DNA of 56,107 bases from Actinobacteria bacterium UBA7524 (lineage in GTDB: Bacteria; Actinomycetota; Coriobacteriia; Anaerosomatales; UBA912), in NCBI GenBank assembly GCA_002478275.1, contig DLMY01000050.1, positions 1-56,107 of the forward strand, in the 5' to 3' direction. Numbering within the stretch: position 1 is the first letter of the stretch; each line of letters opens with the position of its first letter. The position numbers were made by a program. Shown piece after piece: positions 27,525 through 30,500 of this stretch.

Positions 27525-30500
27525 TCAGCATCCTTCCTTGTGTCGCGCAGGTTTCTCGCGCGTTTCCTATAGCTCGTACCCGGACTCGGCATGTTCGGAC
27601 AGGTCGCAGCCGGTCTCCTCGGCATCTTCGTCGATGCGCAGGCCGATGACGAGGTCGATCAGCTTGAGGATGATGAAGCTGGCGACGAACGAGAACACGA
27701 TGGTCAAGACGATGCCGATCACCTGCTCGAGGATGAGGCCGCCGCGGCCGAGATCGGCGAGCGTCTCCGTGAGGTCGGCGTTGACGAGCGTGCTCGCGAA
27801 CACACCGGTCAGAATCGCGCCGAAGGTGCCGCCCACGCCGTGGATGCCCACGACGTCGAGTGCGTCATCGTAGTGGAACTTCTCTTTGAAGGTGACGCCG
27901 ATGAAGCAGCCTGCGCCTACGACGAATCCGATCGCGATGCCTGCCATCGGGGTCACGAATCCCGCGGCTGGCGTGATGCCCACAAGGCCGGCGACCGCAC
28001 CGGAGGCCGCGCCGAGTGTGGTGGGCTTGCCGCGCTTGATCCACTCGACAGCGAGCCAGCCGAGCATGCCGGAGGCGGCCGCGAGGTGAGTGGCGAGAAA
28101 CGCGGTGCCGGCGAGCTCGTTGGCTGCGAGCGCGGAGCCGGCGTTGAAGCCGAACCAGCCGAACCAGAGCATGCCCGCTCCGAGCACGGTCATCGGCATG
28201 TTGTGCGGCGTGAACGCGGTCGTGCCGTAGCCCTTGCGCCGTCCGAGCGCGATCGCGCCGGCGAGCGCTGCAGCAGCAGAGGCGATGTGCACGACGGTAC
28301 CGCCTGCGAAGTCGAGGGCGCCTCTCTGCTGTAGGAAGCCGCCGCCCCAGACCATGTGCGCCATGGGTGCGTAGACGATGATCGACCACAGCGTGATGAA
28401 GATCGCGTACGCGGAAAACTTCATGCGCTCGGCGAAGGCGCCCGAGATCAGCGCCGCCGTGATGACGGCGAACATGCCCTGGAACGCGATGAAGACAGGC
28501 AATGGGATCGTGCCAGACATCTCACCGAGGGTGCCTGCGAGTCCGGCGTACTCGAAGCTTCCCATGAACGCGCCGAGCGCCCAGTCGGTCGAACCGAACG
28601 CTATCGTGTAGCCCACGAGCGCCCAGACGACCGAGATGATGCCCATCGCGAAGAACGAGTGCATGATCGTCGAGAGCACGTTCTTCGAGCGCACCAGGCC
28701 CCCGTAGAACAGCGCGAGCCCTGGCACCATGAACAGCACGAGCGCCGAGGACATCAGTATGAACGCGGTATCTCCGTAGTCGATTCCCATCTGCCTCTCC
28801 GTTTCCGCTCCCTTCGCAAAGACCCCGGATCGCCGAGGAGCCCGTGCGACATTGCCTGCGTGTTTCGTAGAGGTTACGGGCCGCGTGTTTCGGTCGTGTT
28901 TCTGACTGGCTTGAGGTGCGAATTCGCGGGACGCCGCTCGTGAAACAGGAGCCGGACGGTGTGTCCGGCTCCTGTTGTTTCAGGGACGGGCCACTCGCTG
29001 CCGAGCGAGGTTTCCTCGGCCAGTGAAAGGTTCTAGTTGGTTGGCACGATCTTGAGAGTGTCAGTGCCAGAGAAGGCACCACCGGCCCAGAAGAAGCCAG
29101 TGACCGTGCCCATGGTCTGACCGGGGAGGTATGTGCCGTCGACGTCTTCGATATGGACGATCAGGTCGTCGTATCCGTCGAAGTTGTAGTCCTCGATCGA
29201 GGCTTGAGCGGTCATGCTCTTGCCCTTGAACCGCACTGCCATGCCGTCCAGGGCTACCGTCGCGGGATTGATGGTCGTCACGTCGAACGTGGCCGAGCCC
29301 AGGATCGCCACAGGGATGACGCCTTTGCCGTTGTTGTTGACGGCGTTCGGATCGCTCATGGGCCTGATGTCTACCGTTACCTGGGCGATGTACTCGTCGA
29401 GCGAGAAATCGTCCAGGCAGTAGTCGTTGCCGCTGGCGGCCAGTGTCGGCGAAACGAGCTTCAGTGTCGCGGTCGTGGCGCTTCCGGCGGTCCAGTGGTA
29501 GTCGTACTGGACCCATTGGCCGACCGCTCCGTCTGCGACATATGTGTCCACTTTGACGTCATTGATATAGAGATCCAGCGTCGGAGGCGCTTCACCGATG
29601 CTCTTGGCACCCCAGAACGAGAATGAATACACGCGTCCCGGTAGCACGTTCACTGTCGGGGCGGTCCATACGACCTTGTTCGGCGTGGTCGAGCCGTTGA
29701 CGATCATCATATTGCCCACGGCCGGGTCGTCGGGTGTGGTGTGGTCTCCGTGAGGTCCGTACACCCAGTGCGCGTGGTAGTCGTACGGGTCCTTGCCCAG
29801 AGCGTACGTTCCCTCACCCCACAGGGTGGAGTGCCCGGTCGCGGCCACATACGTGTACTCCGAACTGAACCCGACGCCGTTGCCGAGTTCGAAGTCGCCG
29901 TTGGTCAGCAATTCGACCGCGAAGGCCTGTGTGCTTATTGCGAGTATCAGTACTACTGCGAGTATGAAGACGAGCGATAGTCTCTTCATCGTTCAGCATC
30001 CGTTTCTCTCGAACGAGCAGTACACCGGGACGGTCGAGAACGGAGAGTCACCTCACTTCACCAGCCCCTGCGGCACCCATCCGGCCGCACGAATAAAGAC
30101 CGACCCCGGTTCGAGGTCGGTCTCACCATTGGCTCCCTGCCGACTCAGGTGACCGTATGTTCGTGTCGGCAGATCGATACCCCCCGTGGCGACAACTCGG
30201 CGCGTGGCGCCGGTTGTTCACCGACTGAGATGTTACCCAAACCCCCGGCCGGATTCACTAGCCGAGTCGACCTCGTATCGCGCACGCGACTTGAGCCGTC
30301 TGTGGGCGTGGTAATCGGGCACACGCGCACGACTGTCGGCATGCCGTGGGGCGGTTCTGTGCATTGTGTGTGCGTGCGGGTCAAGGCATGCATGGTGCTA
30401 CCGGGAGGGGATCGCCGCTATGCCGGCGTACCGGCCGTCTCCTTTTGGAGGTGTTTAGAATTGCATAGGATCAGAATCGCCATCGTGATCGTGGCGACGG

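Follow-up and report, generated by a model that had tools for sequence, protein, structure and literature searches.

c-di-GMP riboswitches of the GAG variant and of class I upstream of genes for exported proteins in the actinobacterium UBA7524

The window, a contig of 56,107 nucleotides from Actinobacteria bacterium UBA7524 (Coriobacteriia; Anaerosomatales), carries two RNA elements of the c-di-GMP-II-GAG type, each ahead of a gene for a secreted protein; a third lies on contig C10, as does an element of class I (Table 1). Rfam scanning and whole-genome searches returned three matches to RF03169 in the genome, including that at 30106-30192 (E 2.5e-9), and a single match to RF01051 (class I). 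All three GAG elements fit the RF03169 model, scoring 15-20 bits over its gathering cut-off of 40 bits and in each case higher than with RF01786, the canonical c-di-GMP-II model, where they reach 37.5-43.5 bits (cut-off 53.5 bits). Together with a G at position 69, these scores rule out a canonical identity, and a whole-genome RF01786 search of the 83% complete assembly (1.81 Mb) found no canonical class II element; relatives of the same order carry both RF03169 and RF01786. The genome-wide survey's note had described four riboswitches, three GAG and one class I, upstream of and on the same strand as genes with signal peptides, and this was borne out for all four, with gaps of 35-254 nt, "all four" being a lower bound because the assembly is only 83% complete. 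Its family assignments also stood (CBM_4_9 at E 8.7e-4 for g01193, SdrD_B and DUF11 for g00266, no Pfam family for the 98-aa and 210-aa proteins). Its wording "secreted or wall-anchored" was right as to signal peptides, present in four of four products; a wall anchor is demonstrable only for g00266, none being recognisable in the other three.

Table 1. Riboswitch elements, expression platforms and neighbouring genes in the window and on contig C10 (locations without a prefix are in the window).
Feature	Location	Strand	Remarks
c-di-GMP-II-GAG aptamer	30106..30192	-	RF03169 59.5 bits; RF01786 43.4 bits
G67-A68-G69 of this aptamer	30124-30122	-	Rfam alignment
Expression platform	30087..30124	-	hairpin GAGACCGACCUCG-AAC-CGGGGUCGGUCUU (30124-30096), then UAUUCGUGC
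g01193, 318-aa secreted protein	29033..29989	-	116 nt downstream of the aptamer
Multihaem cytochrome	30461..33313	+	divergent neighbour; 10 CxxCH, three CWB2 wall-binding repeats
Second c-di-GMP-II-GAG aptamer	8109..8197	+	RF03169 56.8 bits; RF01786 43.5 bits
Terminator	8179..8215	+	GAGACCGGCC-UUGC-GGCCGGUCUU, then CUCUGUUGUUCUU; overlaps aptamer 3' end
g01176, 98-aa secreted Cys-rich peptide	8233..8529	+	35 nt past the aptamer
c-di-GMP-II-GAG aptamer	C10:38907-38997	-	RF03169 55.0 bits; RF01786 37.5 bits
g00266, 660-aa adhesin, SdrD_B + DUF11	C10 36670-38652	-	254 nt from the aptamer; ends ...LPFTGGESMLLAMAALFAALAGATLRLAVRKA
Class I aptamer	C10:35677-35773	+	RF01051 60.3 bits
g00265, 210-aa protein, HEIWH	C10 35838-36470	+	gap from class I aptamer 64 nt to TTG, 100 nt to ATG
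Sortase	C10 34805-35698	-	Pfam

In the 30106 element, the Rfam alignment shows the pseudoknot strand GGUGAGACCG, present in all three GAG elements, and the loop CGGUCACC; the outer part of P1 contains three non-standard pairs. The hairpin behind it (-22.4 kcal/mol, RNAfold) takes as its 5' arm the aptamer strand with the ligand contacts, the pseudoknot and P1, so that the aptamer and terminator folds are mutually exclusive. Its U-tract is weak, with 4 U in the 8 bases past the stem, and it was missed by a simple terminator scanner. No promoter was returned by a sigma-70 scan of positions 28700-30500. The terminator of the second element has a calculated energy of -21.0 kcal/mol (RNAfold) and was also caught by a hairpin script anchored on GAGACCG. 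The divergent cytochrome gene beside the 30106 element lies on the strand opposite to the aptamer and is not controlled by it in cis.

The product of g01193 consists of a signal peptide, a CBM4/MAM-like jelly roll (residues ~25-200) and an Ig-like C-terminal domain (~200-318), with no LPxTG motif. Its match to CBM_4_9 (PF02018), at 20.1 bits, lies under the gathering cut-off of 25.9 bits, so it is not counted as a member of the family. For an AlphaFold2 model (pLDDT 84.7), Foldseek gave matches among MAM-Ig modules and to CBM4, with E values from 4e-8 to 1e-5; the predicted fold thus resembles CBM4 and MAM jelly rolls, and sugar binding is putative. Among 177 relatives, many match through the C-terminal domain only. 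The N-terminal domain is associated with a riboswitch in both genomes that have it. In 20 metagenomic relatives with 31-41% identity, by contrast, up to 1200 nt of upstream sequence (less than 600 nt at 4 of the loci) held no c-di-GMP riboswitch; control of the family is therefore lineage-specific, with two genomes behind it (the second locus is L108). The Cys-rich peptide g01176 has repeats of the form ..GQ(V/I)SPDRVLA.. and no Pfam family. Homologues were found in the related-genome search only in G050 and G014, each directly behind a GAG-type aptamer, which makes the association complete in the three genomes having the family; a word-based search of 5.8 billion proteins gave nothing beyond the query itself.

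"GAG" refers to G67-A68-G69, where the canonical class reads G-C-A; the 3Q3Z numbering of these positions was derived from PMC13715770 and the two Rfam consensus lines. For a wider view, all 89 class II-fold aptamer matches from 60 related genomes were fetched with 3 kb downstream each. In every one of the 89, a loop U or G accompanies A or C at position 68 (68 U-A, 21 G-C) and a loop A or G accompanies U or C at position 66, which makes A68 a compensated pseudoknot pair. The targets of the two types differ. Multihaem cytochromes lie downstream of 18 of the 21 canonical-type elements and of none of the 62 GAG-type ones, while Ig-repeat adhesins (adhesin-type Pfam repeats) stand behind 34 of the 62; at least 13 genomes have both types, and there the targets of the two do not overlap. 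Across the order, then, the GAG variant mainly serves large Ig-repeat adhesins and canonical class II serves multihaem cytochromes, and the "GAG regulon" that had been proposed from this one genome is not readable from it alone. The canonical model scores all 15 tested GCA-type relatives at 60.6-73.4 bits. A script that looked for a hairpin overlapping the aptamer (at least 6 bp, 5' arm starting at GAGACCG), with 4 or more U among 9 bases after it, found one in 50 of the 64 elements of GAG type and in 14 of the 21 of canonical type, the 30106 element being mis-anchored and hence entered as a negative. A crude signal-peptide heuristic with a background of 27% flagged 77 of the 89 ORFs downstream and 336 of 1235 controls; the genomes, being related, do not count as independent samples.

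The C10 locus holds both riboswitch classes. The adhesin g00266 is a sortase substrate by its features: LPFTG at residue 629 of 660, followed by GESMLLAMAALFAALAGATL and RLAVRKA, with a sortase encoded nearby. It also contains two copies of PFxPFT; among the fetched adhesin ORFs just one copy occurs elsewhere, overlapping the LPFTG anchor of L115, and the motif is not proposed as a zincin cleavage site because it is absent from the other ORFs. Even with E values up to 1 allowed, the 210-aa g00265 protein matches no Pfam family. None of 40 members of its own family has a Pfam match either, and H168, E169, H172 and D175 are invariant in 40 of 40 sequences. A model of its domain (pLDDT ~96) shows an HExxH helix against a three-stranded sheet, and its structural neighbours are nearly all zincins (SPRTN at Z 7.6; selecase and abylysin at 6.9), all Z scores being below 8 and Foldseek E values at least 0.049, none reaching 0.001. 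Judged from this model, g00265 belongs to an unannotated family of minimal zincins for which catalysis is predicted. Like the minigluzincins (selecase, abylysin, jannalysin) and minimal zincins of the SPRTN/Wss1 type, the domain comprises a helix, three strands and the HExxH helix, but no sequence relation to them was detected, and unlike them g00265 is secreted and has a long low-complexity linker. A profile search of PDB sequences gave low-complexity matches only. Identity with the M34/Pro-Pro endopeptidases (PPEP) was rejected, as none of 40 members matches the M34 model and Z is 4.8 with PPEP-2 and 4.5 with PPEP-3; a suspected likeness to DUF4157 was dropped because no member matches.

This pair of elements is part of an order-wide conserved cassette composed of a sortase, a class I element, an HExxH zincin and a converging adhesin with a GAG riboswitch. 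For 27 class I matches, spread over 26 of 61 genomes, the same contig holds a class II-fold element 3.2-8.3 kb away and always convergent; it is of the GAG type in 24 genomes and of the GAA type in 2, the canonical GCA type occurring in 0 of 27. An HExWHxID gene follows 16 of 31 class I matches examined, with the sortase as the divergent upstream ORF in 11 of the 16, and the riboswitch-linked adhesin recurs in ~24 related genomes. In Clostridioides difficile, c-di-GMP riboswitches ahead of adhesins are textbook knowledge. According to PMC6366702, Cdi-2-3 (CD2831 adhesin), Cdi-2-1 and Cdi-2-4 (pilA1) are class II ON switches that act through transcription termination, and the circuit of ZmpI with CD2831 has been tested experimentally. 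As in those cases, a class II fold here precedes a sortase-anchored adhesin, the C. difficile set also including pili; the cassette likewise places a small secreted HExxH gene behind class I, as for ZmpI/PPEP-1 (OFF; substrates CD2831 and CD3246), next to the gene of a sortase-substrate adhesin behind a class II-fold riboswitch. There are also differences: the pocket is G67-A68-G69 instead of G-C-A and the canonical score falls under its cut-off, the host is an actinobacterium of 63% G+C, the targets include unanchored secreted proteins, and the protease is an unrelated minimal zincin of ~90 residues without a Pfam family, its activity and substrate being predicted. The resemblance to PPEP is one of circuit and not of descent. 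To judge from titles cited in PMC13715770, the GEMM-Ib cGAMP riboswitches of Geobacter, which control exoelectrogenesis genes, are similar in being one-base pocket variants beside a parent class and in lying upstream of extracellular multihaem cytochromes; they differ in that they belong to class I, while here the fold is class II and it is the canonical form that precedes cytochromes and the variant that precedes adhesins.

The 30106 element is probably a working riboswitch of the GAG subtype that turns on transcription of g01193, the gene of the secreted protein with the lectin-like jelly roll, an ON behaviour in vivo that its architecture would predict. In the GAG elements the terminator uses the strand of the ligand pocket, the pseudoknot and P1, for which reason they look like ON switches; the shared nucleotides between the terminator stem and the ligand-stabilised helices are the sequence basis of this predicted function. 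Without ligand, the strand beginning G67-A68-G69-A70-C-C-G73 and the 3' half of P1 would pair with the downstream complement, the 13-bp terminator hairpin would form, and transcription would end ~100 nt ahead of the g01193 start codon. With ligand, the strand would be kept in pseudoknot, pocket and P1, no terminator would arise and g01193 would be transcribed. Built in the same way, the elements at 8109-8197(+) and C10:38907-38997(-) would control the Cys-rich secreted peptide and the LPFTG-anchored SdrD_B/DUF11 adhesin, and high c-di-GMP would lead to more adhesive and secreted proteins. Direct control of exported-protein genes by these riboswitches is well supported, because position and strand are as expected, the GAG terminators overlap the aptamers and the gene associations recur in relatives. 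The earlier claim that c-di-GMP directly controls surface proteins is upheld to this extent, whereas its ligand step exceeds the evidence. It is very improbable that the aptamers are decaying relics without regulatory effect. The non-standard P1 pairs of the 30106 element and the 5 of 16 predicted C. difficile c-di-GMP riboswitches reported as non-functional in PMC6366702 would fit decay, but the scores lie well over the cut-off, the nucleotides of pocket and pseudoknot have been kept, covariation being perfect in 89 relatives, matched terminators are present and the links to particular genes are conserved.

For the GAG type, c-di-GMP is rather likely the ligand. In 3Q3Z, one guanine of c-di-GMP receives three hydrogen bonds from A69 (PMC13715770), and as this contact is a G in the three elements, specificity could differ. 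That the subtype senses something else, such as 3',3'-cGAMP or another dinucleotide, so that the order would have two class-II-fold channels, is considered unlikely, although several observations point that way: A69G changes the nucleotide by which the ligand's alpha base is recognised, the fold can accommodate 3',3'-cGAMP, which an engineered variant of class II binds at 11 nM (PMC13715770 for both), a one-base class I variant of Geobacter senses cGAMP (references 8 and 9, as cited in PMC13715770), and the split in targets within the same genomes is strict (cytochromes behind 0 of 62 and 18 of 21). This split, however, could stem from vertical co-inheritance of riboswitch and gene, and the remaining ligand contacts, A70 and G73, are unchanged. 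Two genomes have A69 (GAA) at the orthologous cassette position, one of them (G025) scoring 68.8 bits with the canonical model, which suggests that G69 and A69 are interchangeable; the class I partner elements fit the c-di-GMP-I model. Hypr enzymes, which make cGAMP, have Ser or Thr at a position of the GGDEF domain where this genome has Asp in all four of its intact GG[DE]EF proteins (of 8 GGDEF matches), and no cGAMP synthase was recognised, SMODS giving no match in the 83% complete genome. The count of 8 GGDEF proteins agrees with the earlier one, while 13 HD_5 (HD-GYP type) matches were obtained where 11 HD-GYP proteins had been given; there is 1 EAL match. PilZ has no match in this 83% complete genome, where no c-di-GMP receptor was recognised besides the class I and GAG RNAs.

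If C. difficile is a guide, the zincin, controlled in the opposite sense, may trim the adhesin or set it free, a proposal given close to an even chance. It is also quite conceivable that the HExxH protein does not release the adhesin and has another substrate or a wall or non-catalytic role, adjacency then being mere co-regulation. The latter would agree with the lack of PPEP/M34 homology (40 of 40 without a Pfam match, Z only 4.5-4.8) and with the fact that no conserved cleavage motif is definable among the fetched adhesin ORFs, of which a single one reached its LPFTG C-terminus because the fetched sequence extended just 3 kb past each element. Moreover, the class I switch could be either ON or OFF. 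The conserved hairpin of its leader is in the minimum-energy fold with the aptamer tail and without it. A search for an antiterminator or anti-sequestor turned up an alternative pairing of 5-6 bp (GCCGGG/CCCGGC), but this hairpin prevails in all the minimum-energy folds, and another conceivable pairing would carry the opposite sign. Mere co-regulation is less easily reconciled with the conserved order of sortase, zincin and adhesin, in which riboswitches of two classes converge and which 26 of 61 genomes share, and with the close parallel to the ZmpI/CD2831 circuit (PMC6366702).

The GAG variant was reportedly defined by Weinberg and colleagues in PNAS in 2017. In the accessible literature no statement on RF03169 targets or ligand was found; the term occurs in 2 papers, in one of them as the name of a model, and the variant is absent from the main text of the 2017 NAR paper. 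c-di-GMP riboswitches ahead of adhesins were not found described in the literature for this actinobacterial order, and the paper defining the order, which reports cells attached to ferrihydrite and counts 17-18 multihaem cytochromes, nowhere mentions c-di-GMP or riboswitches. With four switches ahead of secreted or wall-anchored genes and the same wiring in relatives, the cell surface seems to be run largely by RNA switches. The GAG target set of adhesins and secreted proteins differs from the canonical one, which would represent either natural tuning or changed specificity. A circuit of release protease and adhesin under two riboswitch classes may have evolved twice, with unrelated proteases. 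It is conceivable, though unlikely, that GAG elements are a separate sensor, with another ligand or a clearly shifted threshold, for adhesins and secreted matrix proteins, the canonical type serving giant extracellular multihaem cytochromes and class I an adhesin-releasing zincin; if true, this order of subsurface actinobacteria would have two parallel channels of the same fold, the canonical one being for electron transfer to minerals. In mineral-respiring Gram-positive bacteria, RNA alone may tie both attachment and electron transfer outside the cell to a single messenger.

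The genome-wide survey's note had placed four c-di-GMP riboswitches on the same strand as, and upstream of, genes for signal-peptide proteins, and this is accurate: the Rfam matches, gaps and N-termini were all reproduced (see table). An Rfam scan of the window gave two matches to the c-di-GMP-II-GAG model (RF03169) besides three tRNAs, and a whole-genome search added a third such match and the sole class I match (RF01051), both on contig C10. On the three RF03169 sites the canonical c-di-GMP-II model (RF01786) reaches no more than 37.5-43.5 bits, its cut-off being 53.5. A signal sequence, first basic and then hydrophobic, opens each of the four products, and the g00266 adhesin ends in LPFTG, a hydrophobic stretch and a basic tail. 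With an assembly that is 83% complete (1.81 Mb, 60 contigs; the window is its contig C37, with a G+C of 63%), four is a minimum.

Riboswitches, associated genes and further loci in the UBA7524 genome and its relatives
Feature	Contig	Position (strand)	Score or product	Gap or setting
RF03169 riboswitch	C37	30106-30192(-)	59.5 bits, E 2.5e-9	116 nt to g01193
g01193	C37	29033-29989(-)	318 aa	
RF03169 riboswitch	C37	8109-8197(+)	56.8 bits	35 nt to g01176
g01176	C37	8233-8529(+)	98 aa	
RF03169 riboswitch	C10	38907-38997(-)	55.0 bits	254 nt to g00266
g00266	C10	36670-38652(-)	660 aa, SdrD_B + DUF11	
RF01051 riboswitch	C10	35677-35773(+)	60.3 bits	64 or 100 nt to g00265
g00265	C10	35838-36470(+)	210 aa, HEIWH	
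Sortase (Pfam)	C10	34805-35698(-)		
Multihaem cytochrome	C37	30461-33313(+)	10 CxxCH, three CWB2 repeats	divergent from GAG riboswitch
Beta-helix protein	C37	8574-10922(-)	782 aa, three CWB2 repeats	converges on g01176
Ammonium transporter + PII protein	C37	27183-28790(-)		243 nt downstream of g01193, same strand
GGDEF-EAL protein	C37	54579-55793(+)		
Tandem GAG aptamers L036/L065	G030:C3	10977-11682		~620 nt apart
Tandem GAG aptamers L038/L055	G044:C22	154034-154741		~620 nt apart
GAA pair L124 + L100	G020:C7	446848-447370		back to back
Canonical element L074	G003:C305	2140-2224		before multihaem cytochrome

RF03169 matches occur in 45 of 61 genomes of the same order, UBA7524 included, and in a class-wide sample in 53 of 67 genomes of the order versus 0 of 83 genomes of other orders. 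All 89 above-threshold matches in the 60 relatives were retrieved, each with 3 kb downstream, and typed by the trinucleotide preceding ACCG: 62 are GAG, 21 are GCA (the canonical form), five are GAA and one is CAA. Fifteen of the GCA-type aptamers were submitted to Rfam and all had RF01786 as best model (60.6-73.4 bits); of the five GAA-type aptamers, RF01786 was best for two and RF03169 for three. A script called the downstream ORFs, of which 86 were scanned against Pfam. Cytochrome c7, c3 or MtrC-like families follow 16 of the 21 GCA-type elements, and 18 of the 21 products carry 6-33 CxxCH motifs within at most the first 980 residues, the remainder being one ORF cut at a contig end, one fn3/PKD protein and one RCC1-repeat protein. 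Pfam found no cytochrome family after any of the 62 GAG-type elements of the relatives; 34 of them precede SdrD_B, DUF11, DUF7507, SpaA, PKD or cadherin-like repeats, and the others mostly signal-peptide proteins without a Pfam family. GAA-type targets are two adhesins, a sugar transferase, a polysaccharide deacetylase and a truncated ORF. At least 13 genomes have both the GAG and the GCA type. By a crude signal-peptide heuristic, 77 of the 89 downstream ORFs were positive versus 336 of 1235 (27%) long UBA7524 ORFs, and two of the twelve negatives were wrong ORFs picked by the script (98-aa peptide family). Since the genomes are related and not independent, these census figures are descriptions, not statistics.

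In both tandem pairs, the two GAG-type aptamers share a strand, the stretch that separates them holds no convincing ORF, and a large DUF7507 adhesin follows the second; they may be tandem riboswitches, or a small gene may have been missed. The paired GAA-type elements serve divergent genes with exopolysaccharide-type products, namely a Tat-signal polysaccharide deacetylase with CBM_4_9 and a Bac_transf sugar transferase. Six GAG-controlled proteins without a Pfam family (L054, L059, L061, L067, L091 and L108) are alike at their C-termini (...RQLVAA.LNEGLG...FNNSGTEEWLP.W...), which hints at a further secreted family, not yet described, under GAG control.

In the structure of the canonical RNA (3Q3Z), A69 forms three hydrogen bonds with one guanine of c-di-GMP, A70 is stacked between the two ligand bases and G73 reads the second guanine (PMC13715770). 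Variant positions were located by aligning the Rfam consensus lines with 89 related aptamers, from which we infer their mapping onto 3Q3Z numbering. The canonical 3' strand reads G-U-G-C68-A69-A70-C-C-G73 and the variant G-U-G-A68-G69-A70-C-C-G73. The loop base that pairs with position 68 is U opposite A68 (68 cases) and G opposite C68 (21 cases), and the second pseudoknot pair covaries equally cleanly across the 89 aptamers. Because position 68 covaries with the loop base, C68A is a compensated base pair; A69 to G is the only real pocket change.

In both window elements, the strand GAGACCGRCC and the 3' half of P1 also supply the 5' arm of a strong hairpin, behind which comes a tail containing U: GAGACCGACCUCG-AAC-CGGGGUCGGUCUU then UAUUCGUG in the 30106 element (-22.4 kcal/mol, 30124-30087), and GAGACCGGCC-UUGC-GGCCGGUCUU then CUCUGUUGUUCUU in the 8109 element (-21.0 kcal/mol, 8179-8215). 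The C10 GAG element is built in the same way. The ligand-bound fold would use this strand for the pocket, the pseudoknot and P1, so that binding would prevent termination; because fold and hairpin need the same strand, the GAG elements are predicted to be ON switches. A script detected the overlapping hairpin in 50 of 64 GAG-type and 14 of 21 canonical-type elements, having mis-anchored the 30106 element and so scored it negative. The U-tract of this element is weak (4 U in 8 bases after the stem), its hairpin has no entry in a simple terminator scanner's list, and its outer P1 holds three non-standard pairs.

On C10, sortase, class I riboswitch, g00265 and the converging adhesin gene with its GAG riboswitch form a cassette. 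Class I matches occur in 54 of the 61 genomes, and in 26 genomes one lies on the same contig as, and 3.2-8.3 kb from, a GAG-type (24 genomes) or GAA-type (2) element, always convergent and never with a GCA-type partner. A gene encoding HExWHxID follows 16 of 31 class I matches examined, namely those with the longer aptamer (89-97 nt), and the divergent ORF upstream is a sortase in 11 of the 16. In the class I leader, GGGAGGAG lies within the 3' arm of a conserved GC-rich hairpin and is followed after 9-10 nt by an in-frame start codon, and the aptamer tail has two alternative pairings with opposite predicted regulatory outcomes. Shorter class I aptamers (75-84 nt; L135, L138, L140, L144-L146) end ~1-9 nt from the start codon of secreted proteins of at least 370 aa in other families of the order, several with a common C-terminal ...W(F/Y)N...DWR(I/V)ESS... 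motif; these aptamers seem to control another regulon at the level of translation. In g00266, PFxPFT, which resembles the LPFTG anchor motif, stands on either side of the DUF11 domain (residues 476 and 607); elsewhere among the retrieved adhesin ORFs it matched once, overlapping the LPFTG anchor of L115.

The g00265 family comprises at least 308 proteins, with Anaerosomatales, Coriobacteriia or Actinobacteria as source names; g00265 matched no Pfam family and no solved-structure sequence. Behind its signal peptide and low-complexity linker comes a ~90-residue domain, with H168, E169, H172 and D175 invariant in 40 of 40 sequences. With the domain model (pLDDT ~96), Foldseek found nothing at E 0.001 or better, its top rows beyond that value being minigluzincins, IrrE and SPRTN; VIA-align gave Z 7.6 for SPRTN, 6.9 for selecase and abylysin, 4.8 for PPEP-2 and 4.5 for PPEP-3. 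We read g00265 as a predicted secreted minimal zincin. In C. difficile, ZmpI/PPEP-1, controlled by a class I OFF switch, cleaves sortase-anchored CD2831, itself behind a class II ON switch (PMC6366702). The cassette matches this circuit in its layout of sortase, class I riboswitch, metalloprotease, adhesin and class II-fold riboswitch. Because g00265 is unrelated to ZmpI/PPEP-1, the parallel would be convergence. By analogy, the cassette may work like the C. difficile circuit.

The ligand of the GAG type is, in our judgement, fairly probably c-di-GMP. The A70 and G73 contacts are intact, the class I cassette partner fits the c-di-GMP-I model, and in one relative (G025) the cassette position is held by an A69 element scoring as canonical. 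Four of the eight GGDEF matches in the UBA7524 genome combine an intact GG[DE]EF with Asp where cGAMP-forming (Hypr) enzymes have Ser or Thr, which also favors c-di-GMP. On the same side, the genome has one EAL and 13 HD_5 matches, and a domain search of the assembly gave none for SMODS or PilZ. Against c-di-GMP count the one changed ligand-contact base, the fact that GAG and canonical types never share targets, and the tight binding of cGAMP by the class II fold when altered (PMC13715770). If c-di-GMP is the ligand, the two types may respond at different thresholds. The single EAL match of the genome lies in the GGDEF-EAL protein of the window, whose GGDEF part looks degenerate.

Many of the 177 relatives of g01193 share only its C-terminal 115 residues, fused to other N-terminal domains. 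Its AlphaFold2 model (pLDDT 84.7) has a jelly roll ahead of an Ig-like domain and is closest to solved MAM-Ig and CBM4 modules (Foldseek E 4e-8 to 1e-5), and LPxTG is absent from the protein. Of the 60 relatives, G030 alone encodes a homologue of the N-terminal domain, also behind a GAG-type aptamer, and a c-di-GMP riboswitch precedes none of 20 more distant metagenomic relatives. Judged from these sequences, riboswitch control of g01193 would have been acquired in this lineage and is probably not a property of the protein family. Homologues of g01176, with two or three GQ(V/I)SPDRVLAER repeats and C-terminal cysteines, occur only in G050 and G014, both directly behind GAG-type aptamers. In the window's own family, one of four other genomes has a class II-fold element (L074), and homologues of g01193 and g01176 occur in families of the order remote from it, every one accompanied by a GAG element of its own; the pattern suggests patchy retention or joint transfer of riboswitch-gene units.

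Beside g01193, the multihaem cytochrome fused to cell-wall-binding CWB2 repeats has no riboswitch of its own and likely starts at TTG 30461, preceded by GGAGG; giant multihaem cytochromes of relatives lie behind canonical elements. Next to g01176, the beta-helix protein (right-handed, DUF1565/NosD-like) has a signal sequence. Since the simple scanner found no terminator between g01193 and the ammonium transporter and PII genes, the riboswitch transcript may read through into them.

In the literature searched, as far as its accessible text goes, "c-di-GMP-II-GAG" was seen only as a model name. The variant reportedly stems from Weinberg et al. in PNAS in 2017, whose supplement may already give these gene associations or ligand tests. 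The order-defining Anaerosomatales paper describes 17-18 multihaem cytochromes, the reduction of Fe(III) and the attachment of cells to ferrihydrite, and contains neither "c-di-GMP" nor "riboswitch"; a search joining c-di-GMP, riboswitch, multiheme cytochrome and Actinobacteria gave nothing relevant among the matches listed. The 30106-30192(-) element adds a member to a known riboswitch family and would work in a known way. Altogether, the added value lies in the order-wide wiring, with the GAG variant for adhesins and secreted proteins and the canonical form for cytochromes, and in the conserved two-riboswitch cassette around an adhesin and a new, predicted small zincin.
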